DNA of 64,000 bases from Nanobdellota archaeon. Lineage in GTDB: Archaea > Nanobdellota > Nanobdellia > SCGC-AAA011-G17 > JAFCDX01. Below are positions 35,032-64,000 of the stretch, in pieces. The translations under genes and the position numbers were made by a program. Location of the stretch: NCBI GenBank assembly GCA_040753775.1, contig JBFMDT010000001.1, positions 58,584 through 122,583 on the forward strand. The letters run 5' to 3'. Each line of letters opens with the position of its first letter. Within the stretch, counting starts at the first letter, position 1. The notes beneath the pieces are model-generated. The model was not told where the DNA came from. It saw only the letters and a program-made list of their open reading frames with translations, and searched no databases.

Positions 35032-35118
35032 GGGATTTGAACCCAGATCCTCGCCTTGGAAGGGCGAGATATTGGCCCATTTCTGACTAGCCATTATACT
35101 ACTGACGCATAATCAAGA
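35032..35118 (-). tRNA. tRNA-Gly(TCC) with a ~14-nt insertion (probable intron) in the D-loop
   Basis: On the minus strand: acceptor GCGTCAG/CTGACGC, anticodon arm TCGCC-CTTCCAA-GGCGA, T-arm CTGGG-TTCAAAT-CCCAG all contiguous; the D-region (GTAT...23 nt...ATAT) is about 14 nt too long. Confidence 0.7.
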
Positions 35119-43410: not shown

Positions 43411-43745
43411 CCCCATTAATTTCAATAATAATAATTGTTATAGCAGCTGCGATTGGCTCATTTGGGGCATTATTCATAAAAAAGGGCTCAAAACACTTCA
43501 CAATAAAAAAACCATTCAATAAAGATATAGTGATTGGGGTGTTGTTGTATGGGATTTCTACATTGCTCTTTATCCCGGCATTAAAGCTTGGGGAGCTATC
43601 GGTGTTGTACCCCTTTGTTGCAACAGGCTACATCTGGATAATAATGCTGTCAAAAAAATACCTAAATGAAAGTATAACCTTAACCAAGATAATTTCAATA
43701 GCTCTTATAATAATTGGTGTAAGCTTCATTGGTTTTGGAAGTTAG
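43407..43745 (+). CDS. 4-TM EamA/SMR-like protein (second subunit)
   Basis: As above; overlaps the upstream partner. Confidence 0.5.
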   Translation: MTPLISIIIIVIAAAIGSFGALFIKKGSKHFTIKKPFNKDIVIGVLLYGISTLLFIPALKLGELSVLYPFVATGYIWIIMLSKKYLNESITLTKIISIALIIIGVSFIGFGS

Positions 43746-48542: not shown

Positions 48543-49940
48543 TTGCTGCATTATATAAAAATGACTAAGGTTTTGCTTGTCCAACCAAACTTTAATGTAA
48601 ACGTAGAAAAGGCATATGATGCTTGTTTGCCTCTGCCCCTTATTTACATAGGAACTTTTTTAAATAAAAATGGCCATGAAGCAAAGATATTTGACAGAAG
48701 TTTGCATTCCGACAATAGAGACTTTATAAGAGCGCTGAAACAATTTAATCCTGATATTGTCTATACTAATGTTATAATGGGCAGATTGATATTTGATTGC
48801 ATTACATTTTCTAAAATAGCAAAATCACACAGCGATGCATTGGTTATCTGGGGAGGAATATTGCCGACCCTAAGACCAGCAATTCCTTTGAATAGCGGGT
48901 ACGTTGACTTTGTTATAAGAGGTGAAACAGAAGAAACTATGTTAGATATAGCAAACACCTTTAAAGCCAGGAAAACCAGAGAAACAATTTCTAAACTGCG
49001 CAATGTAAACTACAATCCATCTAGACCAAGAATGGACCTGGATTTGCTTGCTGAGCCTGACTATGAATTAGTTGATGTTAAAAAATATACGGACTTCGGT
49101 GTTATCACATCAAGAGGATGTCCTTATAGGTGTGCTTTTTGTTACATAGATGGCTACTGGAAGTCTCTGCATCTAGAAAAATGGCGCGGTATGTCTACAG
49201 ATAAAGCTATAAACATGATAAGAAACCTTGTTACTAAATACAACATAAGAGATATAGCAATTTATGATGACAATTTTCCAACAGATAAAAAGAGAGCTAT
49301 AGAAATAATGCATGGAATAAGCGATCTTGGTTTGAAAATTTTCATACTGGGCAGAACAAACTATTGCCAAGATGACATAATGCAAGCTTATAAAAAGGCT
49401 GGCGTGTGGACCATACAGATTGGTTTTGAATCTGGCTCACAAAGAATGCTCAATTTTATGAAAAAGGACGTAACAGTGCAGCAGATGAAATATGCAGTAA
49501 AGCAATGCAAAAAATACAAAATACTCTGCGAAGGAAGTTTTGTTATTGGCTTTCCAGAAGAAAATGTAGCAGACTTAAGTGAAACTGTAAAATTTATTAA
49601 GCAAAATACTCCAGATTACGCTGGAATTAAGCTATATCACCCATATCCAGAAACAGATTTTTATGACTACTGTATTAAAAATAGGCTTATAACAGAACCT
49701 AAAAGACTTGAAGACTGGGGTAATGTTAGTGTATTCAATTGGGCAAATATCAATGTAAGCAAAATTCCAACAGATGTTTTAATGAAGACAAAGGCAAACA
49801 TAGAAAGATTTTTGTTTATGAAATCATACAGCAGAAAGCTCTTTAGAATGCTACTATCAGGAAGAATTCCTAAGTTCAGCAAAATCTTAAATGCATCTAA
49901 ACATATCTTAAGTTTATGGACAAATAAGCCTATCCAATAA
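48543..49940 (+). CDS. B12-binding-domain radical SAM enzyme (paralog 1)
   Basis: N-terminal cobalamin-binding-like domain; CxxxCxxC (RGCPYRCAFC). Confidence 0.8.
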   Translation: MLHYIKMTKVLLVQPNFNVNVEKAYDACLPLPLIYIGTFLNKNGHEAKIFDRSLHSDNRDFIRALKQFNPDIVYTNVIMGRLIFDCITFSKIAKSHSDALVIWGGILPTLRPAIPLNSGYVDFVIRGETEETMLDIANTFKARKTRETISKLRNVNYNPSRPRMDLDLLAEPDYELVDVKKYTDFGVITSRGCPYRCAFCYIDGYWKSLHLEKWRGMSTDKAINMIRNLVTKYNIRDIAIYDDNFPTDKKRAIEIMHGISDLGLKIFILGRTNYCQDDIMQAYKKAGVWTIQIGFESGSQRMLNFMKKDVTVQQMKYAVKQCKKYKILCEGSFVIGFPEENVADLSETVKFIKQNTPDYAGIKLYHPYPETDFYDYCIKNRLITEPKRLEDWGNVSVFNWANINVSKIPTDVLMKTKANIERFLFMKSYSRKLFRMLLSGRIPKFSKILNASKHILSLWTNKPIQ

Positions 49941-50865
49941 CCTTGCTAAGAACATTTAAATATGATTTAGCTACTTCTTCCCATGTATAAGTTCTTATCT
50001 TCTTAACGTTTTTGGATAATTTACTTCTTAGACTTTTATTCTTGATTAATTCTGCTAGTGCTTTCCTAAAATCTCTTGTCAAATAAGCATCTTTCTTATG
50101 TGTTAAAATTTTTCTTATTCTTCCATCATAAGCTAAGATACATTTACCGCACCTTATGTATTCAAACATCTTTAATGCAGAATCCTGATTAGACGTAACA
50201 ACAACTATATCTGCTGCTTTAACATAACCGGGAACATCTTCTTGTTTCTTGAATCCTAAAAAATGTACGTTTTTAGAAGCAATTTTTTTAAATTCTGGAT
50301 TAGTCTGCCCTATTAGGTATAAATCACAATTAAGGCCGTCAACAGCTTTAATAATCCTATCGACTTTTTTGTATTCGGTTTGTTCTCCAACATAAAGAAC
50401 CTTTATTCTGCCTCTAAGCTTTACAGCTTTCTTATTGCTTCTGTCTGCACCATGAGGGATATAGGAAACCTTTTTACCTAGCTTCCTTGCTTCTTTTTCT
50501 AAATGTTTGCTAACTGTAGTTATGTAATCAGAATTTTTAATCGTAAAAACCTCTAAAAAATATATAAAGCCATAGCCATACTTTTTGCCCATGACCTCTG
50601 AATAAATATCATCCCATGCATGAACAACAGGGCATTTTATTAATTTAATTTTTCTAAGCAAGGCTGGTATAAAACCAATAACACCTGAGCTTATTACAAC
50701 CTCTGGATTAAATCTCAGGTAGCGAAAGTAGAATTTTAACCAATCTTTTTTTGTTATAAAATCAACCTTATTTCCTTGTTTTTCAAAAATATAACTCAAC
50801 CTAGATGGTCCTACAAAAACAATTGGTTTTCTTACTCTATCGTGTGTTATTACCTGTATCTTCAT
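49930..50865 (-). CDS. glycosyltransferase family 4
   Basis: GT-B C-terminal domain. Confidence 0.7.
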   Translation of the reverse strand: MKIQVITHDRVRKPIVFVGPSRLSYIFEKQGNKVDFITKKDWLKFYFRYLRFNPEVVISSGVIGFIPALLRKIKLIKCPVVHAWDDIYSEVMGKKYGYGFIYFLEVFTIKNSDYITTVSKHLEKEARKLGKKVSYIPHGADRSNKKAVKLRGRIKVLYVGEQTEYKKVDRIIKAVDGLNCDLYLIGQTNPEFKKIASKNVHFLGFKKQEDVPGYVKAADIVVVTSNQDSALKMFEYIRCGKCILAYDGRIRKILTHKKDAYLTRDFRKALAELIKNKSLRSKLSKNVKKIRTYTWEEVAKSYLNVLSKVIG

Positions 50866-51968
50866 TTCAAGTTTTTTAACAAGCTTAAATAATCTTTTGA
50901 CACCTTGCTAAAGCGGTATTGCTTTGCTTTCTCGTAACCACTTTTACCAATTTTACTAGCCAGTCTTTTATCTTTTAATATAATGTTTATCTTACTTGCT
51001 AGTGTTTGCACATCTCCCAAGTTATATAAGCAAAAGTTATCTGGAACTATAGCTGGCAACCCGCCTGTACTAGTCGCTATTACCGGCTTTTTTTGCGCCA
51101 TCGCCTCTATCATTACAGCCCCTAAACCCTCTTTAATGCTTGGCAATACAAATAAATTGCAGGCAACATAAGCTTCTAATCTTTCTTTGGTGTCTAAGTC
51201 TTTGTTTAACCAAACTATTTTATTTTCAACATTGAGCTTTTCAGCCAATGACTTCCATTGTTTTGTAACATCACTTTCTTTGCCTCCAAAAACAAACGTG
51301 GCATCAACATATTGTGCTGCCCTAATTAATTCGCCCAAGTTTTTCACTTGATGATGCCTACCTAGCCATAAGATCACATTCCCTTTTAATTTGTACTTCT
51401 CCCTAAAAGAACTTTTTATTTTTTTAAAGCATATGTCTTCTAGTGGAGCAGGGATAATTGCAATATTTTTAGTTCCTAAATTCTTCAACCATTTTGCTTC
51501 TAAACTAGTTTCGGCTAAACAATATGAATTTCTTATCAAAGGATTACCGATTGTTAAATCAATAAAGTTCATAAGAATGTTTACAAAAATGCCTTTTATA
51601 GAAGCTCTTTTGTAAGCAGGAAAGAACGGGGAAAGTAAAAACTTGGCTTTGCCTTTTGTGATAAATGCATAAAATACATGCGGGTGCCTATAGCCACCGC
51701 AACAGTGTATTACGTCATAGCCTCTTACATCAGGAAAAAATACCTTAGCAAAATAAAATAAATTCAAATAATTTTTATACCGCTTGATCTTTATTCCCTC
51801 TTTAGTTTCTTCCTTCACTTTAATTCTTTTGCCATCTGGATAAACATCGGAGCAAATAACAGTGACATCTTGCCCAGCATTTTTTAAAATCTTGACCATC
51901 TTGCCGGCATAGCCCTCATAAAATTCATTAACAGGCCAACAAAATGGGGTAACGATTGCAATTTTCAT
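50862..51968 (-). CDS. glycosyltransferase family 4
   Basis: GT-B fold; EGLGAVMIEAMA motif. Confidence 0.8.
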   Translation of the reverse strand: MKIAIVTPFCWPVNEFYEGYAGKMVKILKNAGQDVTVICSDVYPDGKRIKVKEETKEGIKIKRYKNYLNLFYFAKVFFPDVRGYDVIHCCGGYRHPHVFYAFITKGKAKFLLSPFFPAYKRASIKGIFVNILMNFIDLTIGNPLIRNSYCLAETSLEAKWLKNLGTKNIAIIPAPLEDICFKKIKSSFREKYKLKGNVILWLGRHHQVKNLGELIRAAQYVDATFVFGGKESDVTKQWKSLAEKLNVENKIVWLNKDLDTKERLEAYVACNLFVLPSIKEGLGAVMIEAMAQKKPVIATSTGGLPAIVPDNFCLYNLGDVQTLASKINIILKDKRLASKIGKSGYEKAKQYRFSKVSKDYLSLLKNLK

Positions 51969-52498
51969 TTCACTACCTTAAGCTCTACGTATAATTCGTT
52001 GCTTGGAATGATAAATGCAATATATCTTTCGTAAAATTTGGGAAAGATATTTATTATATAACTGAACAGGTTTAACAGTCTGTTCCAAGAAAAGTTGATC
52101 CTCCTTCTAACAATCTTAAACTCAACTCTGCTATCTATGCTTAACCAAGAATTTTTTACAAAATATTCAAACGTCCTATAAGCAAAAAAATGTTTATGTG
52201 TGGGGTCTTGAAATGCGTATGCACTGGCAAAATAAGGAACCTTTATAATAACTAATGCATTTGGCTTTGCTACTCTATAAATCTCCTCTATTGCTTTCAC
52301 TAAATCACTTAAATGTTCTAGGATGTGACTAGCATAAACTTTATCAAAGGTATTTGGCTTAAATGGCCATGGATATTTATCCAAATTATGTACAACTTCA
52401 ACGTGCTCTTTTTTAATTCTATCTAGATGAACAACCTCTTCATTGGATTTAGCTTTGTAGTAGTGCTTACCGCTTCCAATTTCTAGTACTTTGCTCAT
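51965..52498 (-). CDS. class I SAM-dependent methyltransferase
   Basis: Rossmann methyltransferase motifs (LEIGSG). Confidence 0.65.
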   Translation of the reverse strand: MSKVLEIGSGKHYYKAKSNEEVVHLDRIKKEHVEVVHNLDKYPWPFKPNTFDKVYASHILEHLSDLVKAIEEIYRVAKPNALVIIKVPYFASAYAFQDPTHKHFFAYRTFEYFVKNSWLSIDSRVEFKIVRRRINFSWNRLLNLFSYIINIFPKFYERYIAFIIPSNELYVELKVVK

Positions 52499-53310
52499 AG
52501 TTTTAGTGAATCTATTCTAGCTTTTAAAATTTCTCTTATATAAAACAGTGTTTTTGGTTTGGCTAAAACTTGATACCCAATAAATAATGGGAAATAGACA
52601 AAGAAATCTAAGATTGTAAATAGCAACCTGTTTTTAGTGTATTTTAAGCAGTAGAGCACCCTATTCCTGTTCATGTAGTAAACCTCGTGGCTTGATACTT
52701 TACTTTTTTGGATATCATGATAAACTACAGCTTTTGGCTCGTAAACAACCTTATAGCCCTTGTTTCTAATCCTCTTACACAGATCTACTTCTTCATAGTA
52801 CAAGTAATATTTTTTATCAAGCAACCCTACTCTGTCTAGAACATCCCTTTTCAGCAGTATCGCACAACCACTAACATAATCACAGCTGGATTTATTTACG
52901 TGCGTATTGAATATCCCTCCTATGATCTCCTTTGCTCCAGAAAACCAGACGTCTTTGCTATCCTTGTAGTAAATCTTTGCTCCTCCTGCCCCAACATCTT
53001 TAGATTTAACAGCGCTAACTAAATACTGCAGACAATTTTTATCAGCATAGGCATCATTATTCAACAAAAAAATGTATTTTCCCTTTGCCTTTCTTATTCC
53101 AATATTGTTTCCTTCAGCATAGCCATAATTTTTTTTGTTTCTTATTAATTTAAAGCCATACTCCTTAACTATTTTATCACTGTTATCACTGGAATCATTA
53201 TCCACAACAATAACCTCATAATCCTTAAAATTCAAATTTCTTACAGAATCTAGGCATTTCTTCAGCGTTCTTGCCCCATTGTAGTTTAAGATGATAATTG
53301 AAATTAGCAT
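52495..53310 (-). CDS. glycosyltransferase family 2
   Basis: GT2 N-terminus (ISIIILNYNG...VVDNDSSD). Confidence 0.85.
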   Translation of the reverse strand: MLISIIILNYNGARTLKKCLDSVRNLNFKDYEVIVVDNDSSDNSDKIVKEYGFKLIRNKKNYGYAEGNNIGIRKAKGKYIFLLNNDAYADKNCLQYLVSAVKSKDVGAGGAKIYYKDSKDVWFSGAKEIIGGIFNTHVNKSSCDYVSGCAILLKRDVLDRVGLLDKKYYLYYEEVDLCKRIRNKGYKVVYEPKAVVYHDIQKSKVSSHEVYYMNRNRVLYCLKYTKNRLLFTILDFFVYFPLFIGYQVLAKPKTLFYIREILKARIDSLKL

Positions 53311-53385
53311 AAAAATGAGTTAAAAATGCTATTTAAAAAGTTTATTAAGCATAAATCTCATTTATCCCAGAGAACGTCCTTTATT

Positions 53386-53874
53386 TTATTTAATTAGATT
53401 TCCCCATTCTCCTAAATCAGTTATCCATTCTTTCTGCGATCTTTCTTCCCAAGTTTTAAATGCTTGTTCATAACATTCTTCAAAAATTTGTTTTGTTACT
53501 TTATTTATTTTTATAAAATGTTCTATTAATTTATTCATATTTAAAAGTCCTTTTGAAACTTGAATTTCTGCAAATCCTATATGTTTAATCATATGACAAT
53601 CGTCACATAAGGCAGTAAATCCCTTTAATTTTTGGATATTATTTTTGTCATCATAATCCCATATTTCATGACAATCTAGTTTACTTGATGCCCCACAGAT
53701 TTGACATTTATTCTCTGCTTTTTTATAAGTCTCTTTTCTAATTTTATCCCATTCACTTTTTGAAATATTATTTCTTAGATTTGAATACCATGCTGTTGCC
53801 GGTACTAATTCTATCTCAAGTTCCATTTCTACCTCCAAATCTCTTTGTATCAGGCTTACTCTGCCAGCACTCAC
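53386..53874 (-). CDS. HNH-like zinc-finger nuclease-domain protein
   Basis: CQICG...CHEIW...LCDDCHMIKH pattern. Confidence 0.4.
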   Translation of the reverse strand: MSAGRVSLIQRDLEVEMELEIELVPATAWYSNLRNNISKSEWDKIRKETYKKAENKCQICGASSKLDCHEIWDYDDKNNIQKLKGFTALCDDCHMIKHIGFAEIQVSKGLLNMNKLIEHFIKINKVTKQIFEECYEQAFKTWEERSQKEWITDLGEWGNLIK

Positions 53875-54068
53875 AACAGCTTATCCTTATCAGAAGAAAA
53901 AAATCTTATCATCATCAACTTATGCAAAATAAACCTTGATCTATAATATTTTATTTGTCAAACTTGTTTATATACTTTTGTATCTTTGAACATATTAATC
54001 CATATCAATAATTCAAACTTTATTTAATAATTAGGCTCTGTTTAAAAGTAATTTATTCCAAAATCCCT

Positions 54069-54821
54069 TTACTTCCTCCCAACCACAGTCCAGCTATTAT
54101 TGTTTACGTGATAAATTTTAACATTCGTTAGCTCTTTCAACAAACTCTTAGCTTCCCTTTTAGTCCAGTAATTAGCAATTCTAGGTAATAACTGGTCAAA
54201 AACAATAGAATGTACATGCCTAAATCTAAAAATTTTAAGTTGTTTTAAATAAGGTGATTTTGGTTTAGCCAATTTCAAATAAATCCATAAAGAAATGCTA
54301 AACAAATATGCAATCTTATGCGTCAAAGAAATAGGCAGTCTGCTAGTTACCTTTCTTATAGGATTTACATACCTAACAATCCATTCATTTCCTTCATAAC
54401 CATAAACCCAAATCAATAAGGTCCCATTCTTCTTCAATGCCCTTACAAGATTTTCAATAGCCTTCTCAGGAAACTCCAAATGATGTATAACCCCAATGGA
54501 AAAAACAAAATCAAACTTATTCTTGTAATTAATGTCGTAAATGCTTTTGTATTCAACTTTTGCATTCTTGAATTCTTTTAAAGTTTTTCTAGCAGCTCTA
54601 ACAGTTCTTTTGTCGTAATCAAAGGCAACTAAACTCTTAGCCCCGTTTTTCAAGCAAAAATAGCTGTTCCTACCCATTCCGCATGCAGCATCTAAAATAC
54701 TTTTTCCCTTGATAAATCTCTTGTTAACAGGATAAACCCATTTCCAAAACTGTACTTCATACTCCTTGTACATTTCAGGATACTTGCTCCATTCATAACC
54801 AAACCTCTCAGTAGATGCCAT
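54069..54821 (-). CDS. class I SAM-dependent methyltransferase
   Basis: Motif I LDAACGMGRN. Confidence 0.8.
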   Translation of the reverse strand: MASTERFGYEWSKYPEMYKEYEVQFWKWVYPVNKRFIKGKSILDAACGMGRNSYFCLKNGAKSLVAFDYDKRTVRAARKTLKEFKNAKVEYKSIYDINYKNKFDFVFSIGVIHHLEFPEKAIENLVRALKKNGTLLIWVYGYEGNEWIVRYVNPIRKVTSRLPISLTHKIAYLFSISLWIYLKLAKPKSPYLKQLKIFRFRHVHSIVFDQLLPRIANYWTKREAKSLLKELTNVKIYHVNNNSWTVVGRK

Positions 54822-54891
54822 ATAAAACTATAAAATAACCAATATATAAATCATAGCAAATTATTTAAACTATTTATGCAGGCTAAGTATA

Positions 54892-56928
54892 ATGAAAGAG
54901 TCCTTTTTTCAGAAGTACAAAAAAGATGTTTTAAATTTTATAATACTCTTAGCGCTTATAATTTTTGTTTTATGGAATACCTTTAACAATGCCTTTATAG
55001 GCGGGACAAATGACCTTGAGCCCCATTCTTACTCCTTCTACTACTTAAAAGAATCTTTGGTAAACTATGGAAAAATCCCGCAATGGACATCAGATTACTT
55101 TGGTGGTAAGCCTTTTCTAGGATTGTACCAGCCTTTTACTTATTTCTTATTCCTTCCAGTATCCCTATTCTTTAATCCAGTCATCGTTCCTAAAATAGTC
55201 TTTTTCTTAATATTTTTATTGTCAGTATTATTCTTTTATCTCCTTGCAAAAAAACTCTTTAATAATTCAACAAAAGCACTTCTTGCATCAATAATTTTCA
55301 CAGTATTTCCAGCAAGGCTCTCGATGACAGCTTCAGGAGTATTGGCAGAATTAACAGCAATCATCTTTATCCCAATAGCCTTTTTGTTATATGAAAAAAT
55401 AAAAGAATCTCCAAAGCTAAGGTACTTTGCATTGCTTGCTTTAACTCAAGGCTTTGCTCTTTTAAGCCATCATGCAGCAGGGGGCTCTTTATTCTTTACT
55501 TTAATAGTTTTCATTGCTTATGACTATTTCCTTGAAAATAAGAACACAACAAAAGTAATTCCATATTTAGTAATAGGTATAATAATGTCCTTAGTCTTCC
55601 TGATTCCAGCATATCAGATCCAGGAAAGCCTAAATTTTGCAGTTACAGAAAAGGCAGGAACATCCTTTAGGCCATTGGACATAAAAAACTTCTTCACAAG
55701 AGAAAACTCCCATGGCGAGTTCATAGGAATAACAGCATTCATATTAATTCTTTCATCTCTTTCCTTGGCATTCAAAAAAAGAGACCAATTTACAAAATAT
55801 ATAATCATCTCATTCACTTTTCTGATTGTCGGCTTATATTTGCACTTTCTAATTCCAAGTTTTATTAAAGGAACTCTGCAGTTTGCAAGCAGATTTTATT
55901 CTGTATTAAGCATTACTCTTCCATTGCTTATCATTCTTGGAGTTGAAAATTTCTCTCTTTACCTGATAAAACTGTCAAAAGAGTATAATATATTAACTAT
56001 AAATGAAAAAACAAAAGACACAGCTAAGTATGTTTTAATTGCACTATTCCTCATTCTAATATTTTTTAGCTACATCCAATTCAAGCCTCAAAAAGGGAAT
56101 GAGCTAAGCATTCCAAATGGTGTCCTTGACTTTTACCAAAATATTTCAGCAAATCAAGATTATTATCGAGTAGAAGACCAAGTATTTGCCCCCTTCGGCT
56201 TTTCTCCAATTTTGCATAAGCATGGAATACTCAATGGTGCTCCCTCTCAAGAAGCCCCGAAATATCACTTTACTTTATGGGCAACAGCATGGCAGTTAAT
56301 GCAGTCAGAAAGTGGTGCACAAAACCTTGCAGGGCTTTATGGAGCTTTGTCTATCAAATATTTTGTAGCAGGTGGCCAGACAAATATTCCATACTTTACT
56401 GAATATAAATGCGGTTACAGATATTGCATTTATGAAAATCAAAAATTCCTTCCATACATAAGAACAGTTTCAAAAGTAATTAACATAAACCTAAAAGAAC
56501 CAGATTATGTCTTTGCATTCCTAGATAGCCTGACAAAATTTATAGTTCCGTTTGACAAAGTGGCATTTGCAAGGAATTTTGGTTTATCTGGTATCAACAC
56601 AATAGAGTTATCCCAACCAAAAGCAGCCCTAATGCTTGTTGAAAAATCCCCTGGCTATCTAAAAATAAAAATAGGTAACCTCAACAACCAAGAGTATCTC
56701 ATAGTGTCAGAATCTTACCACCCCTACTGGAAAGCCTATTTGAATAAAAAGGAAATACCGATTTACGAAGGAGTTCCATCAACGCTTGTAATACCAATAA
56801 ATGAAAATGGCAATTTGGAAATAAAATATACTCCTCCAAAAATTAAGTATATATTGTTCTGGCTTACAATGCTCATAATGCTTGCTTTAATAGCCATGGC
56901 AGCGTATGATTACAAAACTAAAAAATGA
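54892..56928 (+). CDS. large polytopic membrane protein (GT-C-like / YfhO-like glycosylation candidate)
   Basis: About 12 N-terminal TM helices, a soluble C-terminal domain and a final TM; no WWDYG AglB motif. Confidence 0.4.
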   Translation: MKESFFQKYKKDVLNFIILLALIIFVLWNTFNNAFIGGTNDLEPHSYSFYYLKESLVNYGKIPQWTSDYFGGKPFLGLYQPFTYFLFLPVSLFFNPVIVPKIVFFLIFLLSVLFFYLLAKKLFNNSTKALLASIIFTVFPARLSMTASGVLAELTAIIFIPIAFLLYEKIKESPKLRYFALLALTQGFALLSHHAAGGSLFFTLIVFIAYDYFLENKNTTKVIPYLVIGIIMSLVFLIPAYQIQESLNFAVTEKAGTSFRPLDIKNFFTRENSHGEFIGITAFILILSSLSLAFKKRDQFTKYIIISFTFLIVGLYLHFLIPSFIKGTLQFASRFYSVLSITLPLLIILGVENFSLYLIKLSKEYNILTINEKTKDTAKYVLIALFLILIFFSYIQFKPQKGNELSIPNGVLDFYQNISANQDYYRVEDQVFAPFGFSPILHKHGILNGAPSQEAPKYHFTLWATAWQLMQSESGAQNLAGLYGALSIKYFVAGGQTNIPYFTEYKCGYRYCIYENQKFLPYIRTVSKVININLKEPDYVFAFLDSLTKFIVPFDKVAFARNFGLSGINTIELSQPKAALMLVEKSPGYLKIKIGNLNNQEYLIVSESYHPYWKAYLNKKEIPIYEGVPSTLVIPINENGNLEIKYTPPKIKYILFWLTMLIMLALIAMAAYDYKTKK

Positions 56929-58865
56929 ACAAGGAGATTATCCCTTACATTTTGATTGTAGCAATTGCACTTACCCTTACTTACAGCATGTTTGCTCCAG
57001 GGTTTATGCTTTACACAGATAATCCAACACACATAGCCTCAGTCCATTTTCTTGTTGATAATTTGCTAAAAGAACAAAAATGGATAACTGGGTGGAGCAA
57101 CTGGGATTTTCTTGGATTTCCTATGCTGCTTTACACTTATCAGTTAAGCTACTTGCTGATTGCTTTTCTAAGCCTGTTTCTTAGTGTAAATCTTGCCTAT
57201 AAAATAATCATCCTTTTTTCAATTATTTTTCCATCAATAGCCCTTTACATATTGCTTAAAACCAAATATAAAATAATTCCGGCAGCAATAGCATCAATTC
57301 TCTTCCTGCTTGCAAGGCCGATATTAAGCCATCAACTAGTAGGCATGTACAACGAATTCATAAGCATTGGCTTCTTTATCCTTTTTGTATATTTCCTGCA
57401 AAAGGATTATAGCGCTAAAAACAGCATAATTTTGGCAGTTCTCTTCTTCCTTATAGTGATTTCCCATCCTTATTCAATTTTTATCCTGCTCTATTTCTCA
57501 TTAATCCTTCTTTTTGTTTATAGAAAGGAAGTTAATTTTATAAAAAACTACTTAAAAATATCTGGAATAGGCTTGCTGCTCTCATCCTATTACCTGCTTC
57601 CAATAATACTGACAAGCAGCTGGCTAGTGAAGTTCGGCTGGCCCATAGGTCCAAGCTTGATCTCAACCTTTATCCACCTTGTATATCAAATATTGTTCTC
57701 AGTCCCAAGCTATTTTACAATATACGATTTCATCAAGGCATCTTTGTCTTTTAACTTAATAGCAATAAAATACCTTGCTGAAATAATTCTCGCAAGTCTT
57801 CCACAATTACTTACTGCAGTGCTCGCTTCAATAGGCCTTTACTATTACAAAAAAAATGACAAGTTTCTTTCTTTAGTTCTCTTATTTTCAATAGCCTCTT
57901 TTATTTTAGGGACAGGCTTTTGGTATTATCTTCCCTTAATAAAAAATATTGACTTGCTCCAGGGAATAGTCTCGTATAAGTTTATTTATTATGGAAGAAT
58001 TGGCTTGGCCGTATTTGCAGCCTATGCCCTATCAAAAATAAAACTAAAAAAAATAAAATACTTGCTCTTTATACCAGCATTTCTTCTCTTGATTTCTGGC
58101 TCATTTGGTTACTTGGTTGAAAAAGATTGGCTGGCAACATCAGAAAACTCTCTTTATATGAATGAAGTTAATTACATACAAGATTGGATTAAGAATAATA
58201 TTAATGGTTCGGAAACAAGGGTAATATACCAGCACCTTGCAGGAAACTTTAGGCAAAACTCTGTACTTGATACAAGCTCTGTCTTTGCAATGTCAAGCTA
58301 TTTCACAAATGTTCCATCCATAGGAATCTGGAGTGGGGGTATTCCTTATCCAACTGAAAACCTAAGATCAACAGAAAACCAAAGGCTGCTTGGTAGTGGG
58401 GTGCAAAATATAACAGACAAAGAGCTGATAGAAAAAATGAAATTAGTGAACGCAAAATACATTGTAGCAGTTGAGAAAAATTTAAAAAACAAGCTAAGAA
58501 ATGATAAATTTATAGAAAAAATTAATACAACCTATCTAAGCATATTTGAATTAAAAGATTACAGGCCAGAATGGATAGAAACAGATGGCACTTATAAATT
58601 AAACAAATTCAAAGACAATGAAATAGGATTTTACATAGAAAATGCAACCTATGCTCTGGTCAAAATGCAGTACCATCCTTATTGGAAAGCAGGCCTAGAC
58701 AACAAAACTTTGAAAATAAATAAGAATGAAAATAATTTGATGATTCTTGATGTAGATGAAATGAAGGGTAATGTAAAATTAAACTACAGCTCAAAAAATA
58801 TCCTCGGAATTATTTTAACGCTTATCGGTCTTATCTTTATTATGAAAATCCGCTCCAAGAGCTAG
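56925..58865 (+). CDS. large polytopic membrane protein, similar architecture to the upstream gene
   Basis: Same architecture as above; start overlaps the upstream stop. Confidence 0.4.
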   Translation: MNKEIIPYILIVAIALTLTYSMFAPGFMLYTDNPTHIASVHFLVDNLLKEQKWITGWSNWDFLGFPMLLYTYQLSYLLIAFLSLFLSVNLAYKIIILFSIIFPSIALYILLKTKYKIIPAAIASILFLLARPILSHQLVGMYNEFISIGFFILFVYFLQKDYSAKNSIILAVLFFLIVISHPYSIFILLYFSLILLFVYRKEVNFIKNYLKISGIGLLLSSYYLLPIILTSSWLVKFGWPIGPSLISTFIHLVYQILFSVPSYFTIYDFIKASLSFNLIAIKYLAEIILASLPQLLTAVLASIGLYYYKKNDKFLSLVLLFSIASFILGTGFWYYLPLIKNIDLLQGIVSYKFIYYGRIGLAVFAAYALSKIKLKKIKYLLFIPAFLLLISGSFGYLVEKDWLATSENSLYMNEVNYIQDWIKNNINGSETRVIYQHLAGNFRQNSVLDTSSVFAMSSYFTNVPSIGIWSGGIPYPTENLRSTENQRLLGSGVQNITDKELIEKMKLVNAKYIVAVEKNLKNKLRNDKFIEKINTTYLSIFELKDYRPEWIETDGTYKLNKFKDNEIGFYIENATYALVKMQYHPYWKAGLDNKTLKINKNENNLMILDVDEMKGNVKLNYSSKNILGIILTLIGLIFIMKIRSKS

Positions 58866-59877
58866 CTATAGACAGCAATGCCCTTGTATTGACTAGCATG
58901 CTTGGATACCCAATGCATCTGAATCTGCAGTCTTTACAGAACCAGTAGCTTCCCTGTAAATTTCTTGCTTCAATTGCCTTGCTGTTATTCCATACCTTCC
59001 TTATATCTCCCTTCATAATCTCCTTTGGAAACCCGGAGCACGGCATTGAGACATTTCCATCCGGCTTAATTGAGATTGTTATATCCATTGCCCTGCATCC
59101 TATCTCAGCTAATCCGCCCTTCCTCAACATTGTAAAATAGATGTTTGGATTAGCAACAGTACTTCCAAACTCTTTTTTTAGGCTCTTGACATCGCTGATA
59201 AATTTCTCCCTATCCGGAACTAAGCTTTCTTGCTCTTTATCAAACATTTCAGGCTTAGGATTCTTTACAGTTTGCAATTCTTTTAACGCCATTGTATATT
59301 CTATCTGTGCATTAAATGCCTTGGCCAATTTAACAAGCCTTCTTAAATTTTCATAACTTGCATTTCTTGTTACAACAGTATGTATCATAAATTTTTTCCC
59401 TCTTTTCTTTAGCTCATTCATCCCTTCCAGAGCCTTCCTAAATGCATTTGGGTAATTTCTCAGTTTGTCATGCTCCCTTCCAACATTATCTAGGCTTATC
59501 CTGACAACATCCGCATCCATTACCTTGTCCGCATTCTCTTTCAAAACAGAGCCATTAGTGCTCACAAAAACATTCATTCCCTTCTTTTTTATGTGCTTTA
59601 TTAAAATATCTATGTCCTTTCTAAGCAAGGGCTCTCCGCCGCTGAAATTTATTATCTTGGTGCCAAGTTCTTTTAGCTGGTCTACTACCTGCAGAGCCTC
59701 TTTTGTGTTAAGCTCAGGGGTCCATGCCTTTTTATGTTTATTAACGCAGCAAAACCCGCACTTCATATTGCAGTTATAGCTTATTTCCCACTGGCAGAAC
59801 AAAGGGACTCTTTTTCCAAAATACTTGACTGCAACAATTCCAGGTAATAATTTTAGTCCGGTAATTATTTTTTTCAT
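58840..59877 (-). CDS. radical SAM enzyme with C-terminal SPASM/twitch-like Cys cluster
   Basis: CNMKCGFC (Cx3Cx2C) and C-terminal C...CKDCRFRC. Confidence 0.75.
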   Translation of the reverse strand: MKKIITGLKLLPGIVAVKYFGKRVPLFCQWEISYNCNMKCGFCCVNKHKKAWTPELNTKEALQVVDQLKELGTKIINFSGGEPLLRKDIDILIKHIKKKGMNVFVSTNGSVLKENADKVMDADVVRISLDNVGREHDKLRNYPNAFRKALEGMNELKKRGKKFMIHTVVTRNASYENLRRLVKLAKAFNAQIEYTMALKELQTVKNPKPEMFDKEQESLVPDREKFISDVKSLKKEFGSTVANPNIYFTMLRKGGLAEIGCRAMDITISIKPDGNVSMPCSGFPKEIMKGDIRKVWNNSKAIEARNLQGSYWFCKDCRFRCIGYPSMLVNTRALLSIASSWSGFS

Positions 59878-61271
59878 TTTGTTATAAACTTGAACAAACT
59901 AAAGGCCCTTATTACTAGTTTTGGGAATTCTGAGATTTTAGTATGCATGATTCTCCTGAAGATATAGCCAGCAGAAAAGTAAAATGACCTGTATGCAAGC
60001 TTGTGGTAGTATGTTAGTTCTTTTGCTGAAACGCTTGGCAACTCTATTACTGGCCTGCCATATCTCTGAAATCTCCACCAGTCTTTTGTCAGCAGTTTTA
60101 TTCCCTTGTCATGCTCAGCCATTGTAAGCACTTCTGTTCCAGGCAATGGTGTCATAACAGAAAATTGCGCATAATCCAATTTTAGTTCTTTTGCAAACCT
60201 TATTGTTTTCATTATGGTTTCCTTTGTATCATAAGGATGCCCTATAATAAAGAATCCATGCGTCTGTAGCCCTACTTTTTTAGCCAATGCTACAGCCCTT
60301 CTAACCTGCTCCAAAGTAATGCCTTTGTGTATAATATTTAGTATTTTTTGATCTCCTGACTCAACCCCAAACTTCACTAATCTACATCCTGCTTTTTTCA
60401 TAATCCTAAGCAACTCTTCTGTAATGAAATTAACCCTTGTATCGCATGCCCATTCTATTTTTATCCCTCTTCTTATGAGCTCTTTGCATATTTCCATTGT
60501 CCTTTGCGGATAAGCAGTAAAAGTGTCATCAACAAACATTATTTTCTTTACGTTGTATTTCTTGTATAGATACTCAATTTCATCAACAACATTCTTCGGG
60601 CTTCTTACTCTGTATTTTCCCTGGTGTATAACCTTTGATGAGCAGAAAGCGCAATTATATGGACAACCCCTTCCAGTAACCATAATTAATGACTTTCCCA
60701 AAAATGGATTTCCATATCTTTCCAAAGGAAGCATGTCATAAGCAGGCCATGGCAACTTGTCCAAATTTTGTATCAGTGCTCTTCTTGGATTTATCTTAAC
60801 CTTATCTTTTTTATCCCTGTAACATAATCCTTTTATCTGCGAAAGCCTCTTTCCGCTAATCAGCTCTTTAAATGTTTCCTCACCCTCGCCTATTGTAATC
60901 ATATCAACATACTTAAATTTCATGCATTCTTCAGGCAATGCAGAAGGATGCGGCCCCCCCCAGACTACTTTAATACCCGGATTTATCCTTTTAACAATCT
61001 CTGATATTTTCATGACCTCAAGAATAGTTGGTGTAACACAGGGTATTCCTACAAACCTTGGGGCTTCCCTTTTTATTACATTTTCAATGACATTCTGCCA
61101 CTTGTTTCCATAATACCTTAGGTCAATTAGGCCAACACTAAAATTATTTTCTCTTAAATAACTTGCAATGTAGGCAATGCCCAAAGGAAACATATCAGCA
61201 TCTATGTGTCTTACATCTATGTTTCCAAAAGCCCTTATGTCAGGCGGTGAAAAAAATATAACATCTTTCAT
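59874..61271 (-). CDS. B12-binding-domain radical SAM enzyme (paralog 2)
   Basis: RGCPYNCAFC; same architecture as 48543-49940. Confidence 0.8.
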   Translation of the reverse strand: MKDVIFFSPPDIRAFGNIDVRHIDADMFPLGIAYIASYLRENNFSVGLIDLRYYGNKWQNVIENVIKREAPRFVGIPCVTPTILEVMKISEIVKRINPGIKVVWGGPHPSALPEECMKFKYVDMITIGEGEETFKELISGKRLSQIKGLCYRDKKDKVKINPRRALIQNLDKLPWPAYDMLPLERYGNPFLGKSLIMVTGRGCPYNCAFCSSKVIHQGKYRVRSPKNVVDEIEYLYKKYNVKKIMFVDDTFTAYPQRTMEICKELIRRGIKIEWACDTRVNFITEELLRIMKKAGCRLVKFGVESGDQKILNIIHKGITLEQVRRAVALAKKVGLQTHGFFIIGHPYDTKETIMKTIRFAKELKLDYAQFSVMTPLPGTEVLTMAEHDKGIKLLTKDWWRFQRYGRPVIELPSVSAKELTYYHKLAYRSFYFSAGYIFRRIMHTKISEFPKLVIRAFSLFKFITK

Positions 61272-61310
61272 TTTTCTTTACACAATAATAAACTTTATAA
61301 AATTATTTGT

Positions 61311-62153
61311 TTAAGGCAGCCTCATTACCATCTGCCCATTCTTAAAAACTCTCACTACCCCACCAGACTCGGAAACAACTACAGCAACAGCATCGGTCTC
61401 CTTTGTTAGTGCTGCACAATTTTTATGCCTAGTTCCCATACCAAATGGAAGATTTAGCAAACTTGAGTTTATGTCTATGTATGTTCCTACAGACAAAATT
61501 CTCCCATCCTTATCAATAACAAACACCCCATCAAGTTGGGAAAATTCTTTTATCCCTTCCTTTATATCATAATCTGTTATTTTTCTGTCTTCTTTTTCAA
61601 AAGGGTTTATTATAAGCTGTTTTGTATACTTATCTATAGGCTCATTGTTGCGTATAATGAAGGCAGTTCCAACCTTCTTGCCTTCTCTTCCTTCGTCAGC
61701 TATTTCAAGTGCAAGGTCAGTAACAGCCTCAATAACCTGCACATTTACCCCTTCAAGCAATTTAGCTGTTTTTGTTATATTAAAAAATAGCTCATCTATA
61801 TCAAAAACATACAAAGCACCCATGAAATAGCTTGTAACATTTCTATCCTCTACAAATACAACCCTGTCTCCTTTGCTTATATAACTATGATTAAGTGCTT
61901 TTATCAGCAGCCTTTTTATAAATGTAATTGGGTTTATTTGGGTCCTGCTTATCTCTGTTATATAACTGTACTGCTTAAAGTTGTGCTCAGATCCCTTAAA
62001 AATATTTACCTTTATTTCAGTATAAGGAAGAATATCATTCAGTCCTTTATTTTCTCTTAAATGTCTGTTAATAGTGACTATGCAGTTAGCCTTAATGTCA
62101 CTTGCAATCTTTATAGCTGCATTGCCTATGGATTCCTCAACTGTAGGATTCAT
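61311..62153 (-). CDS. dacZ: diadenylate cyclase, archaeal DacZ type (c-di-AMP synthase)
   Basis: C-terminal DAC domain with DGVFVID...GMGTRHKNCAALT...VVSESGGVVRVF (DGA-like and RHR-like motifs); N-terminal PK-C-like region. Confidence 0.75.
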   Translation of the reverse strand: MNPTVEESIGNAAIKIASDIKANCIVTINRHLRENKGLNDILPYTEIKVNIFKGSEHNFKQYSYITEISRTQINPITFIKRLLIKALNHSYISKGDRVVFVEDRNVTSYFMGALYVFDIDELFFNITKTAKLLEGVNVQVIEAVTDLALEIADEGREGKKVGTAFIIRNNEPIDKYTKQLIINPFEKEDRKITDYDIKEGIKEFSQLDGVFVIDKDGRILSVGTYIDINSSLLNLPFGMGTRHKNCAALTKETDAVAVVVSESGGVVRVFKNGQMVMRLP

Positions 62154-62202
62154 ATTAATACTTCAAATAGCTTACTTAAATAATTTATTAACTATAAGAA
62201 TA

Positions 62203-63588
62203 TCAACTGGCATAAGCAATCAGCCTGTTAACCAAAAATCTTAAATGCCTGAATGAGGTTACATCCCTTAAAATATTAAATAAAATTTTTGGCCTTAAAT
62301 AAAATCTTAAAATTGCATTTCTTTGCAATTTTTTAAGTCTTTTAAGTGTAAGGCCTTTTGGGGCATAAACTACATTGGCAAAGGATGCATATTTCGCCCA
62401 ATCTCTTATTTCTCCTATTTCCCCATTCTTTACAAGCTCGTAATAAATCTCAGTTCCTGGCAATGGCAAAAAACACCCAAACTGTGCCCTGTCTATTTTT
62501 AACTGCCTGGCAAACCTTGCTGTCTGTTTTATTTCCTTAACAGTTTCACCAGGATACCCTAATATGAACAGCCCGGTTACCTTCATCCCAGATTCATGTA
62601 TCAATCTTATTTTCTCTCTAATCTTTTTTGTATCCAAGTGCTTCTTCATCAATTTCAGTATTCTGTCAGAGCCGGACTCGATGCCAACAGAAACAGCATA
62701 GCACCCGGCCCTTTTCATTAATTTCAATACCTCTTTGTCTAGAGTATCCAATCTTATGCCATTAGGAGTAGCCCAGAATAAATTTAACTTCTCTTTCAGC
62801 AAAGCATTGCAAAACTTTATAACATATTCCCTGTTCAAAGTAAAATTGTCATCTATCATATGAAACTCTTTTACACCATACTCATTTTTGAGCATCTTCA
62901 ACTCGCTTATTACATGCTCAACGCTTCTGTATCTTAACATCTTTCCATTTACCTTTGCCCCTGAACAAAAAGTGCAGTTGTATGGGCAGCCCCTTGTTGC
63001 TTGTATTAGCACAATTGGAAATGCCTTTGCAAATCCCCCCTGCGGGGTTTCAGGATATTTTCTAGGGTCTATTAAATCCCAAGCAGGAAATCCTAATTTA
63101 TCCAAATCCTTTTCAAAGTATTGTGAATTTACTTCAACTCCCTTCTTAGTTTTATATATAAGCCCGGGAACGTCCTTAATCTTATTTTTATTTTCTAAAT
63201 TTTCAAGCAGTTTAACAATACCAAATTCAGCTTCCCCTGCAAATCCATAATCCAGTCCATTAAAATATTTCATGCTGTCATAAGGAACAGCCGAAATATG
63301 CGGACCTCCAGCCATTGTTACTATATCTTTATTTATTTTTTTGATTATTTTAATATACTTCTGAACAACAGGAAGATCGCTTGAAAAAATTTGAAAGGCT
63401 ACAGCATCTGGCTTAAAAGAATTTATATACCCTACAAATCCGTTATAGCCTATATTACAAAGAGTGCAGTCAAGAATTTTAACGTCATGCCCTCTGCTCC
63501 TTAAGCTAGTTGCTAAGTAACCAAGTCCAACAGGAGGCACAAGTGAATACGCCTGCTCATTGTATGGCTTTACCAAAAGTATTTTCAT
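62203..63588 (-). CDS. B12-binding-domain radical SAM enzyme (paralog 3)
   Basis: RGCPYNCTFC; same architecture. Confidence 0.8.
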   Translation of the reverse strand: MKILLVKPYNEQAYSLVPPVGLGYLATSLRSRGHDVKILDCTLCNIGYNGFVGYINSFKPDAVAFQIFSSDLPVVQKYIKIIKKINKDIVTMAGGPHISAVPYDSMKYFNGLDYGFAGEAEFGIVKLLENLENKNKIKDVPGLIYKTKKGVEVNSQYFEKDLDKLGFPAWDLIDPRKYPETPQGGFAKAFPIVLIQATRGCPYNCTFCSGAKVNGKMLRYRSVEHVISELKMLKNEYGVKEFHMIDDNFTLNREYVIKFCNALLKEKLNLFWATPNGIRLDTLDKEVLKLMKRAGCYAVSVGIESGSDRILKLMKKHLDTKKIREKIRLIHESGMKVTGLFILGYPGETVKEIKQTARFARQLKIDRAQFGCFLPLPGTEIYYELVKNGEIGEIRDWAKYASFANVVYAPKGLTLKRLKKLQRNAILRFYLRPKILFNILRDVTSFRHLRFLVNRLIAYAS

Positions 63589-63614: not shown

Positions 63615-63887
63615 TTAAACTTTGCTATAAAAATGCTCAACAAACCTTTTTGCCAGCTTTATAGAGTTATTCATATTCCTGTCATCTGGAAAAATCTGGC
63701 TTGTATTTACCATATAGATATTTCTAATTTTAGTTTCAAAACTTGGCTTTTTGTATCCTGTCTTGTATACTGGTGTTGCATACTTATTCCTTGAAACATA
63801 ATAGTTTATAACATCAGACTCTTTAAAAAAAGGAAACATGAGCTTTAAGCCATTCATATAAAAGTTAAAAAGCCTCTTGTCACTCAT
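63615..63887 (-). CDS. hypothetical protein (possibly part of a longer gene running toward the window end)
   Basis: ORF only. Confidence 0.2.
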   Translation of the reverse strand: MSDKRLFNFYMNGLKLMFPFFKESDVINYYVSRNKYATPVYKTGYKKPSFETKIRNIYMVNTSQIFPDDRNMNNSIKLAKRFVEHFYSKV

Positions 63888-64000
63888 TTTGTATATCTTG
63901 CTGTCGCTTTTTGTATAATTAAAAATATATGCTAAATTTTCATTATCATAATATTTTTTGGATATAAAATTTGTATGCTCAATAACTCCGCCAAAGGGGA

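Follow-up and report, generated by a model that had tools for sequence, protein, structure and literature searches.

A probable cell-surface glycan locus with putative radical SAM sugar-tailoring enzymes in a Nanobdellota archaeon

Tailoring of sugars by radical S-adenosylmethionine (SAM) enzymes is known mainly from antibiotic pathways, those of aminoglycosides, nucleoside antibiotics and moenomycin. Class B of these enzymes includes the sugar and phosphonate C-methylases GenK, GenD1, Fom3 and MoeK5 (PMC12931638), and HpnJ and the calditol synthase Cds have been genetically implicated in, and are proposed for, contraction of a lipid-linked hexose ring (PMC13459092). Here we analyse a stretch of 64,000 nucleotides from a contig of a Nanobdellota archaeon (JBFMDT010000001.1; the whole stretch is called the window), in which three B12-binding radical SAM genes (B12_1, B12_2 and B12_3) and a fourth radical SAM gene encoding 345 amino acids (aa; rSAM345) lie among glycosyltransferase (GT) genes. 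We consider it probable, at roughly 60%, that this region belongs to a locus for the biosynthesis of a cell-surface glycan, with radical SAM sugar tailoring, in a DPANN (Nanoarchaeota) archaeon, and its product is probably an unusual surface sugar. Radical SAM tailoring is not known for an archaeal or candidate phyla radiation (CPR) cell-envelope glycan, and no description of it was found in the literature searched; the literature searched likewise held nothing relevant on B12 or radical SAM enzymes in DPANN or CPR glycosylation, on B12-type radical SAM enzymes in polysaccharide clusters, or on a module such as that described here. Domain content, gene order, synteny across genomes and the non-membership of these enzymes in every characterised family tested were observed directly. 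The genes of the locus, in window coordinates, are as follows.

41892..42575, minus strand: small GT2 of 227 aa, polyprenyl-phosphate sugar synthase type (Glycos_transf_2, 85 bits)
43060..43745, plus strand: two overlapping EamA half-transporters of 116 and 112 aa, ArnE/ArnF-like (Pfam EamA)
43785..44642, plus strand: GT2a, 285 aa (Pfam GT2, 78 bits)
44647..45390, minus strand: S-methyl-5'-thioadenosine phosphorylase (MTAP; TIGR01694, 296.8 against a cut-off of 274.85)
45915..46970, plus strand: GDP-mannose 4,6-dehydratase (Gmd; TIGR01472, 423.5, above its cut-off of 415; GDP_Man_Dehyd, 432 bits)
47010..48539, plus strand: oligosaccharide flippase of the Wzx type (Polysacc_synt / MATE-like; Polysacc_synt, 97 bits)
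48543..49940, plus strand: B12_1, 465 aa (B12-binding 47.5, Radical_SAM 69.9 bits)
49930..51968, minus strand: two translationally coupled GT4 genes, GT4a and GT4b, 311 and 368 aa (Glycos_transf_1, 54 and 93 bits)
51965..52498, minus strand: class-I SAM methyltransferase MT177, 177 aa (Methyltransf_11, 41.9 bits), with a 4-nucleotide overlap with each neighbour
52495..53310, minus strand: GT2b, 271 aa (Pfam GT2, 113 bits)
53386..53874, minus strand: orf162, a Cys-rich, zinc-ribbon-like reading frame of 162 aa (no family above threshold)
54069..54821, minus strand: class-I SAM methyltransferase MT250, divergently oriented to the GT-C pair (Methyltransf_31/11/25, 56-59 bits)
54892..56928, plus strand: GTC1, GT-C-like membrane glycosyltransferase, 678 aa (PMT_2, 27.1 against a threshold of 26.1)
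56925..58865, plus strand: GTC2, large polytopic membrane protein, 646 aa (placed by paralogy to GTC1 and topology)
58840..59877, minus strand: rSAM345, radical SAM enzyme of 345 aa with a shortened SPASM/twitch-like C-terminal domain (Radical_SAM, 95.1 bits)
59874..61271, minus strand: B12_2, 465 aa, core of the conserved module (B12-binding 85.7, Radical_SAM 109.7 bits)
61311..62153, minus strand: DacZ-like diadenylate cyclase (Pfam DAC, 75.2, above the threshold of 27)
62203..63588, minus strand: B12_3, 461 aa (B12-binding 69.7, Radical_SAM 107.1 bits)
63615..64000, minus strand: C-terminal part, cut by the window end, of a PRK07233-family flavin adenine dinucleotide (FAD) protein of the amine-oxidase/phytoene-desaturase superfamily

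All open reading frames (ORFs) named in an earlier note on this DNA were found in the ORF list at their coordinates; orf162, the DacZ-like gene and the flavoprotein were not among them. Pfam scans covered most window ORFs of at least 100 aa, with gathering scores (GA) of 32.1 for B12-binding (PF02310), 29.5 for Radical_SAM (PF04055), 21.5 for SPASM (PF13186) and 26.1 for PMT_2 (PF13231). The three genes at 48543, 59874 and 62203, read in the earlier note as B12-binding radical SAM genes of ~465 aa, each carry both Pfam domains above GA, and the neighbours it had named (GT2, two GT4, two class-I methyltransferases, Wzx and Gmd) were all confirmed by Pfam or NCBIfam, with Wzx and Gmd just left of 48543. 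Its two GT-C-like proteins held up in part: GTC1 passes the PMT_2 threshold marginally, whereas GTC2 is assigned through paralogy and membrane topology. The same was true of its island at 48543-63588, which does contain glycan genes, but the locus overruns both ends and spans ~22 kb or more, from ~41892 to past 64000. It continues beyond the window because a 90-aa ORF at 63615-63887, 73% identical to the flavoprotein C-terminus of a related locus (L001, an ENA metagenome contig), is the C-terminus of the window's own flavoprotein copy; gene content past 64000 was deduced from L001, which is 85% identical.

At least two modules, each conserved on its own, and two genes that L001 lacks make up this mosaic locus. 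Module A consists of GT2a, Gmd, Wzx, B12_1, the two GT4, a methyltransferase and GT2b. Module B consists of MT250, GTC1/GTC2, rSAM345, B12_2, B12_3, the PRK07233 flavoprotein and the small GT2, with the ArnE/ArnF-like half-transporters nearby. Overlaps of 4 nucleotides join B12_2 to rSAM345, GTC1 to GTC2, and GT2b, MT177, GT4b and GT4a in series, a tight operon structure. G+C content is uniform (0.31-0.38), so that composition gives no sign of recent import, and an aTrm56 gene in the window and the DacZ-like gene are consistent with an archaeal source.

The conserved neighbourhoods are the strongest evidence for a glycan locus. L001 keeps the order flavoprotein, B12_3, B12_2, rSAM345, GTC2, GTC1, MT250, GT2b at 62-87% identity (B12_3 81%, B12_2 85%, GTC2 79%, GTC1 87%, MT250 81% in the same position, and GT2b 62% beside it), and beyond the flavoprotein it has a small GT2 and an asparagine-synthase-like amidotransferase. 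Further orthologues of B12_2 (52-58%) were found in L003, L005-L007, L071 and L072, L006 and L007 being loci of CPR Nealsonbacteria, and B12_3 has a 44% orthologue in L003. With these B12_2 orthologues go rSAM345 homologues of 45-51% identity (L003, L006, L007 and L071, not L005 or L072), GT-C proteins with PMT or PMT_2 domains (L003, L005, L071 and L072), which hold the GT-C place itself in L003, L071 and L072, a GT2 of 227-238 aa (L003, L005, L006, L071 and L072) and a methyltransferase (L003, L007 and L071, in the MT250 position in L003 and L071). The window's small GT2 shares 25-29% identity with the small GT2 enzymes in related loci. A PRK07233-type flavoprotein accompanies the radical SAM module in 5 of the 8 related loci with close B12_2 orthologues (L001, L003, L005, L006 and L071), and L006 and L007 each hold only part of the module B gene set. 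L003 also encodes a SIS isomerase, a GHMP kinase, a nucleotidyltransferase and two epimerase/dehydratases, which by their domains look like a GDP-heptose-type pathway, and an STT3 gene adjoins L005.

Module A is conserved separately. L073 carries GT2a (68%), MTAP (76%) and Wzx (53%), the last followed directly by B12_1 (58%), with GT4a (50%), GT4b (48%), a DegT aminotransferase, a dTDP-sugar isomerase and a nucleotidyltransferase; L074 carries DegT, GT4, B12_1 (50%), a methyltransferase, GT9, further GT4 genes and GT2a (63%), directly followed by a GTC1 orthologue (50%) and a PMT protein. Thus, both B12_1 orthologues stand in glycan clusters, and orthologues of all three B12-type enzymes are found again among glycosyltransferases, flippases, GT-C proteins and sugar-nucleotide genes, in line with the glycan-tailoring context proposed earlier. 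The matching loci are all uncharacterised, none being a described pathway, and no lipid or cofactor pathway was found in the neighbouring loci examined. The radical SAM genes could instead merely adjoin a variable glycan locus and have unrelated housekeeping roles, as the DacZ-like gene and MTAP may have, given that the locus is a mosaic with clearly unrelated genes (DacZ-like, orf162) and that distant homologues often lie without detectable glycan neighbours. The 4-nucleotide overlaps, and the presence of a GT-C, a GT2 or both in 9 of 9 loci examined with close B12_2 or B12_1 orthologues, in CPR bacteria and presumed archaea, argue against this reading, which we regard as very improbable.

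Among GTDB species representatives, the closest relatives of B12_2 are in CPR Nealsonbacteria (54%), followed by Omnitrophota, Planctomycetes and Elusimicrobia (40-46%) and Iainarchaeum (~40%), a list biased by the restriction of the scan to one peptide pattern. At least two B12-type radical SAM genes lie within ~10 kb in 40 of the 64 GTDB loci, some of which have up to seven. The named close relatives of B12_1 are DPANN (Nanoarchaeota, Pacearchaeota), most of its matches being nameless. A wider, tentative and rather doubtful idea is that DPANN and CPR share a dedicated pathway, probably through inter-domain transfer, in which a sugar linked to polyprenyl phosphate or to a nucleotide is radically remodelled by a team of radical SAM enzymes (at least two of the cobalamin type and the rare twitch type) and a flavoprotein, and is placed on the surface by a GT-C enzyme. 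The remodelling might be a C-methylation, a deoxygenation or, along the lines suggested for HpnJ and Cds, a contraction of the ring that yields a carbocycle.

Denser arrays of such genes were also seen. In L006 (Nealsonbacteria, 21 kb), L040, L018 and L050, a stretch of ~20 kb carries six to ten radical SAM genes; those of L006 comprise eight of the B12 type and two of the twitch type, and L040 has seven B12-type genes in a row. These arrays suggest uncharacterised multi-step radical tailoring pathways.

B12_1, B12_2 (NCBI protein MEW6062905.1) and B12_3 each have a single CxxxCxxC motif, CPYRCAFC at 193, CPYNCAFC at 203 and CPYNCTFC at 201, respectively; the NCBI start of B12_1 is 6 codons downstream, giving 459 aa. 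The earlier note called them paralogues. They are indeed homologous, if distant, but the local expansion that the word implies does not fit, since pairwise identity is only 27%, 26% and 31%, with B12_1 the most divergent, and each has far closer orthologues elsewhere (44-85%). On these identities they are three old, distinct subfamilies.

Scores against curated hidden Markov models were used as a proxy for a tree in placing the radical SAM enzymes in families. None of the three B12-type enzymes reached a curated cut-off among HpnJ, BchE, P-methylase and AprD4, their top models scoring 27-47% of the cut-offs. HpnJ (TIGR03471, cut-off 577.6) is the best family of B12_2, near full length (269.3), and gives 166.5 for B12_3 and 132.2 for B12_1; BchE (TIGR02026, cut-off 481.35) is the best family of B12_1 (157.9) and gives 197.3 for B12_2 and 198.5 for B12_3. 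The P-methyltransferase models Sden_1168 (NF038361) and PhpK (TIGR04479), with cut-offs of 575 and 600, gave at best 215.4, for B12_3, and the scanned ORFs of the window include no phosphonate gene such as PepM. AprD4 (NF033070, cut-off 500) matched in the radical SAM core only, at 32.1 for B12_1, 122.8 for B12_2 and 110.9 for B12_3. BchE, HpnJ and the P-methylases are thus the nearest generic models, and the three enzymes do not group with BchE or the hopanoid enzymes, a grouping that the earlier note had held to speak against a glycan role. The AlphaFold2 model of B12_2 (mean pLDDT 92.8) matches the folds of AprD4, MgmA, TsrM, OxsB and TokK, and also CysS; for B12_2 and B12_3 the best solved relative in both sequence and fold is AprD4, with MgmA second.

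These family scores bear on the possibility that the locus tailors a lipid or glycolipid, with the radical SAM enzymes and the flavoprotein modifying membrane lipids, the polyprenyl or dolichyl carrier or a head group, and the GT2 and GT-C proteins making or attaching that head group, on the model of GrsA/GrsB, Gmm, HpnJ and calditol synthase. The top curated matches are indeed lipid or cofactor enzymes (HpnJ at 269 bits for B12_2, BchE, and a ladderane-lipid radical SAM enzyme), the PTO1314 family, which comes next in relatedness to rSAM345, carries DUF3463 (PF11946), a domain also present in HpnH, and the conserved module includes a flavoprotein of the amine-oxidase/phytoene-desaturase superfamily. 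Moreover, the known archaeal radical SAM enzymes of the B12-binding cluster modify lipids (PMC13459092). Every score, however, stays within the low fraction of its cut-off given above. Neither the scanned window ORFs nor the gene tables of seven loci with Pfam matches contain an isoprenoid or lipid biosynthesis gene, archaea and CPR bacteria have this module in common despite their different membrane lipids, and B12_1 is coupled to Wzx and sugar-nucleotide genes. DPANN and CPR organisms, moreover, mostly lack lipid synthesis. GrsA/GrsB, Gmm and Cds were weighed against the window enzymes through gene context alone. On balance, a lipid substrate appears unlikely, and a glycan substrate is preferred.

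MTAP, rSAM345, a GT2 and B12_2 together recall the HpnH/HpnG/HpnI/HpnJ set of hopanoid biosynthesis. This comparison was rejected, as the phosphorylase is a true MTAP, the radical SAM enzymes are far below the HpnH and HpnJ cut-offs and no hopanoid context is present.

With regard to cobalamin, all three enzymes have the make-up of class B radical SAM enzymes, with PF02310 at or above GA and PF04055 with CxxxCxxC. The family profile aligns to AprD4 only from residue ~162, in the radical SAM core, and it is with the cobalamin binders TokK, MgmA and OxsB that the N-terminal motifs GGPH and GEGE line up. These motifs are kept in B12_2 (GGPHPS / GEGE) and B12_3 (GGPHIS / GEAE) and degenerate in B12_1 (GGILPT / GETE), so that cobalamin use is likely for the former two and uncertain for B12_1. 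The C-methylation or epimerisation and the cobalamin requirement stated in the earlier note went too far in this respect. No cobalamin uptake or salvage gene was found among the Pfam-scanned ORFs of the 64-kb window. If the enzymes truly use cobalamin, these reduced genomes would depend on external cobamide.

The fourth enzyme, rSAM345, had been described as SPASM-type. It is a radical SAM enzyme with a fold of the SPASM/twitch group, but not a full SPASM protein: its SPASM match is below threshold (19.4 against 21.5), and the cysteines C36/C40/C43 and, in place of the seven-cysteine motif, five C-terminal cysteines (C261-x12-G-x5-C280 ... C314-x2-C317-x3-C321) are invariant across 16 aligned family members. 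The domain thus looks like a shortened SPASM, nearer to a one-cluster twitch domain. The structural model (pLDDT 88.3) is closest in fold to BlsE, followed by SkfB, viperins, MoaA, SuiB, PqqE and anSME (TM ~0.6), and BlsE is the top sequence match too; neither the curated cut-off of PTO1314 (TIGR03961, 111.4 against 306) nor that of BlsE (64.7 against 400), nor any other, is reached. The family is rare. A word-index search of 5.8e9 proteins returned ~16 full-length relatives above 30% identity, and ~16 of 1.84e9 cluster representatives exceed 290 bits against the rSAM345 profile, beyond which matches merge into wider SPASM/twitch families. Many proteins of 600-1,900 aa (e.g. P0378, P0397 and P0419) match the profile in 2-5 separate stretches and look like fused multi-radical-SAM proteins.

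Such a fold also fits a peptide or protein substrate, with the B12-type enzymes as C-methyltransferases (PoyC- or MgmA-like) and rSAM345 as maturase of a surface protein or of the precursor of a ribosomally synthesised and post-translationally modified peptide (RiPP). MgmA, a protein glutamine C-methylase, is the second-best solved relative, the RiPP-type models ApyD and rSAM_ocin_1 match at E 1e-17 to 1e-55, rSAM345 resembles SkfB, SuiB and PqqE, and the window encodes large secreted proteins with PKD or Ig domains and a subtilase. The scores, however, are far under the family cut-offs, the conserved neighbours are all glycosylation genes, and no RiPP-type protease or exporter is present in the locus. 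A precursor gene beside the enzyme, for which the earlier note had proposed to look, does not fit there: rSAM345 overlaps the end of B12_2 by 4 nucleotides at its start and overlaps GTC2 convergently by 26 nucleotides, which leaves zero intergenic space, and the only sizeable gaps of the locus (53300-54900) hold no plausible short ORF. There is also no room for a peptide-recognition domain, since rSAM345 has 345 aa and its modelled radical SAM core, which starts near residue 27, is preceded by just one N-terminal helix (residues 2-20). With neither a precursor gene beside it, nor such a domain, nor a free flank, a RiPP maturation role was rejected as unlikely, and a peptide or protein substrate in general seems quite improbable.

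Turning to the glycosyltransferases, the profile of hydropathy gives GTC1 ~10 N-terminal transmembrane helices, a soluble domain and a C-terminal transmembrane helix. GTC2 shares this topology (~10-11 transmembrane segments, a soluble domain and a C-terminal transmembrane segment) and matches GTC1 by BLAST at its N-terminus (E=3.6e-5) and C-terminus (E=4.5e-8), so that the two are distant paralogues. The best NCBIfam models of the small GT2 are AglJ, PgfS, ArnC, PpgS and a Dol-P-hexose transferase, all below cut-offs; those of the EamA pair are ArnE (35.9 and 29.1 bits) and ArnF (22.4 and 25.6 bits), short of cut-offs of 92 and 99. A flippase role for this pair is thus putative. No such pair was found in the related loci by tblastn, a search for which these short proteins may be too divergent. 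The small GT2, the ArnE/ArnF-like EamA pair and the GT-C pair together make up the parts list of a three-component route, with a lipid-phosphate sugar synthase, a small flippase and a GT-C transferase.

The accessory genes are less closely tied to the pathway. MTAP has a 76% orthologue beside the GT2a orthologue in L073, and this linkage, kept in two related genomes, may be functional or may reflect shared ancestry. MTAP-type enzymes can also clear 5'-deoxyadenosine, a radical SAM by-product, and MTAP may salvage SAM by-products here; its membership in the pathway is uncertain. The L001 flavoprotein (411 aa, L001 5486-6721) belongs to the uncharacterised PRK07233 family (NF005560, 423 against a cut-off of 252). 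A UDP-galactopyranose mutase identity, also considered, was unsupported, as the protein is a PRK07233 member and no Glf model was among its matches. The DacZ-like gene lies between B12_3 and B12_2 on the same strand and falls short of DacZ itself (NF041371, 124.1 against 430), matching through its C-terminal DAC domain only, with the N-terminal 135 aa unassigned. It seems to have been inserted into the operon and is probably outside the pathway, because the B12_3 and B12_2 orthologues are adjacent in L001. By the same reasoning orf162 is probably an insertion outside the pathway, the MT250 and GT2b orthologues being directly adjacent in L001; it has zinc-ribbon-like CxxC...C-H / CxxC-H motifs and weak matches to Lar and FpoO only, and may be a small mobile or HNH-like gene.

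On the glycan reading, which we prefer because of the synteny with glycan genes and the sugar-modifying nearest solved relatives (AprD4 for B12_2 and BlsE for rSAM345), the locus could work as follows. Module A would build an oligosaccharide on a lipid carrier at the cytoplasmic face, and Wzx would then flip it. Module B would be a three-component-like extracytoplasmic glycosylation system, in which the small GT2 loads a sugar onto polyprenyl or dolichyl phosphate, the loaded sugar is flipped, and an acceptor at the surface receives it from a GT-C enzyme. The proposed tailoring, by the four cytoplasmic radical SAM enzymes together with the flavoprotein and the methyltransferases, would act on the sugar in its nucleotide- or polyprenyl-phosphate-linked form. 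Their chemistry would take place at unactivated carbons and might comprise C-methylation, deoxygenation or dehydration (the former as in AprD4), oxidation or decarboxylation (as in BtrN and BlsE), or a ring rearrangement such as the contraction proposed for HpnJ and Cds (PMC13459092). It is in the sugar substrate, the order of steps, the use of cobalamin and the specific chemistry that we infer beyond the observations.

Several findings weigh against this proposal. No reaction is assignable from sequence to any of the four radical SAM enzymes, because none reaches a curated-family cut-off. The nearest solved structure, AprD4, was reported not to bind or use cobalamin (PMC12931638), and the N-domain motifs of B12_1 are the degenerate ones described above. 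GTC2 gave no Pfam match even at E<=5, its placement as a GT-C protein coming from GTC1, and the resemblances to ArnE/ArnF and ArnC are sub-threshold. Among the window ORFs scanned, Gmd has no partner (GDP-4-keto-6-deoxymannose reductase, epimerase or aminotransferase; Fcl, Rmd or Per), and no AglB/STT3 was found. The superfamily of PRK07233 also acts on isoprenoid chains. Finally, glycan-probe matches were obtained in only 26 of the 64 GTDB loci, a raw count without background control, which indicates a weaker link in distant relatives.

Elsewhere in the window, predicted large secreted or surface proteins are encoded at 29338-31788 (plus strand), 35368-38046 (minus), 10975-12159 (plus) and 24290-25453 (minus), among them a subtilase with an Ig domain, an 892-aa PKD-domain protein, and proteins with Big_9 and CARDB domains; these are candidate glycan acceptors. 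Two small paralogous membrane proteins (42647-43078 and 45443-45814, both on the plus strand; 44% identical, weak DUF6122) flank the segment of the ArnE/ArnF-like pair, GT2a and MTAP. At 33282-35019 (minus strand), a GT4 lies beside a PIG-L-family de-N-acetylase, with BshA/BshB and a synthase of N-acetylglucosamine (GlcNAc)-phosphatidylglycerol among the best matches, a pair reminiscent of pathways that add and then deacetylate GlcNAc (bacillithiol, mycothiol and glycosylphosphatidylinositol-like anchors). An 87-nucleotide tRNA was found by Rfam (57 bits) at 35022-35108 (minus strand), whereas ARAGORN found no tRNA in the whole window; this could be an archaeal tRNA with an intron or some other atypical feature. 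A 5S rRNA gene (9816-9930, minus strand) lies directly beside a gene for an rve-type integrase/transposase (10049-10903, plus strand).

DPANN and CPR organisms live attached to host cells, and the glycans on their surface probably play a part in attachment and recognition. The combination of a multi-radical-SAM module with a polyprenyl-phosphate/GT-C system provides a concrete, testable gene set for a new sugar modification, offers new reactions for the largely unassigned sequence space of B12-binding radical SAM enzymes, and is a marker for gene exchange between these two groups of ultra-small microbes. Should the shared pathway exist, it would represent, as far as is known and as far as the literature searched shows, the first cell-envelope glycan tailored by radical SAM enzymes, and a surface chemistry peculiar to ultra-small episymbionts.

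Compared with known systems, the closest solved relative of B12_2 and B12_3 is AprD4 (PDB 6fd2), the radical SAM 1,2-diol dehydratase of apramycin biosynthesis (phmmer E=5e-29 for B12_2 and 1e-24 for B12_3; Foldseek TMq 0.76 over the full length). Its substrate is a sugar, paromamine, and it has the same Rossmann-like N-domain, partial TIM barrel and C-terminal helices. However, identity is ~21% and confined to the radical SAM core, and the N-domains of the window proteins have the Pfam B12-binding match and share motifs with TokK and MgmA. TokK, MgmA/QCMT, OxsB, TsrM and CysS, a class that performs C-methylation or ring contraction at unactivated carbons, have the same domain order and fold, and their N-terminal motifs align. 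They differ in their low identity (16-21%), in their substrates, which for the solved enzymes are a carbapenem, a protein and a nucleoside, and in size, as the window proteins of ~465 aa lack the long C-terminal extensions of TokK, OxsB and CysS (570-740 aa). HpnJ, which acts in hopanoid cyclitol-ether formation on the product of the GT2 HpnI, finds a parallel in the small GT2 of the conserved module; in contrast to HpnJ and Cds systems, B12_2 is at 47% of the HpnJ cut-off, no hopanoid or glycerol dialkyl glycerol tetraether genes are present, and the phosphorylase is MTAP rather than HpnG. Among the twitch or SPASM enzymes that act on sugars or nucleotides (BlsE, BtrN, MoaA and viperin), rSAM345 is nearest to BlsE in sequence and fold, yet with TM ~0.6, 17-19% identity and a fifth invariant cysteine, C321; its spacing C-x18-C ... 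C-x2-C seems to match the BtrN twitch pattern.

The glycosylation machinery can be compared in the same way. With ArnC/ArnE-ArnF/ArnT, GtrA/B/C, CsbB/YfhO and PgfS/PgfM, the locus shares a small GT2, two EamA half-transporters of ~115 aa and putative GT-C proteins of the PMT_2 type, although all window matches to the ArnC/ArnE/ArnF-type models of these systems are under curated cut-offs; no three-component system is known to include radical SAM enzymes or a PRK07233 flavoprotein. With the archaeal agl clusters, which have an AglR/Wzx-like flippase and an AglP-type methyltransferase, it shares the clustering of a Wzx-type flippase, GT2 and GT4 genes and SAM methyltransferases, together with the weak AglJ match of its small GT2, but it differs in that AglB/STT3 is missing among the ORFs scanned, and no described agl pathway is known to have B12-type radical SAM enzymes. 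Taken together, the enzymes are of known kinds, class B and twitch radical SAM enzymes and the parts of a three-component glycosylation system, brought together in an uncharacterised combination that is common to DPANN archaea and CPR bacteria.

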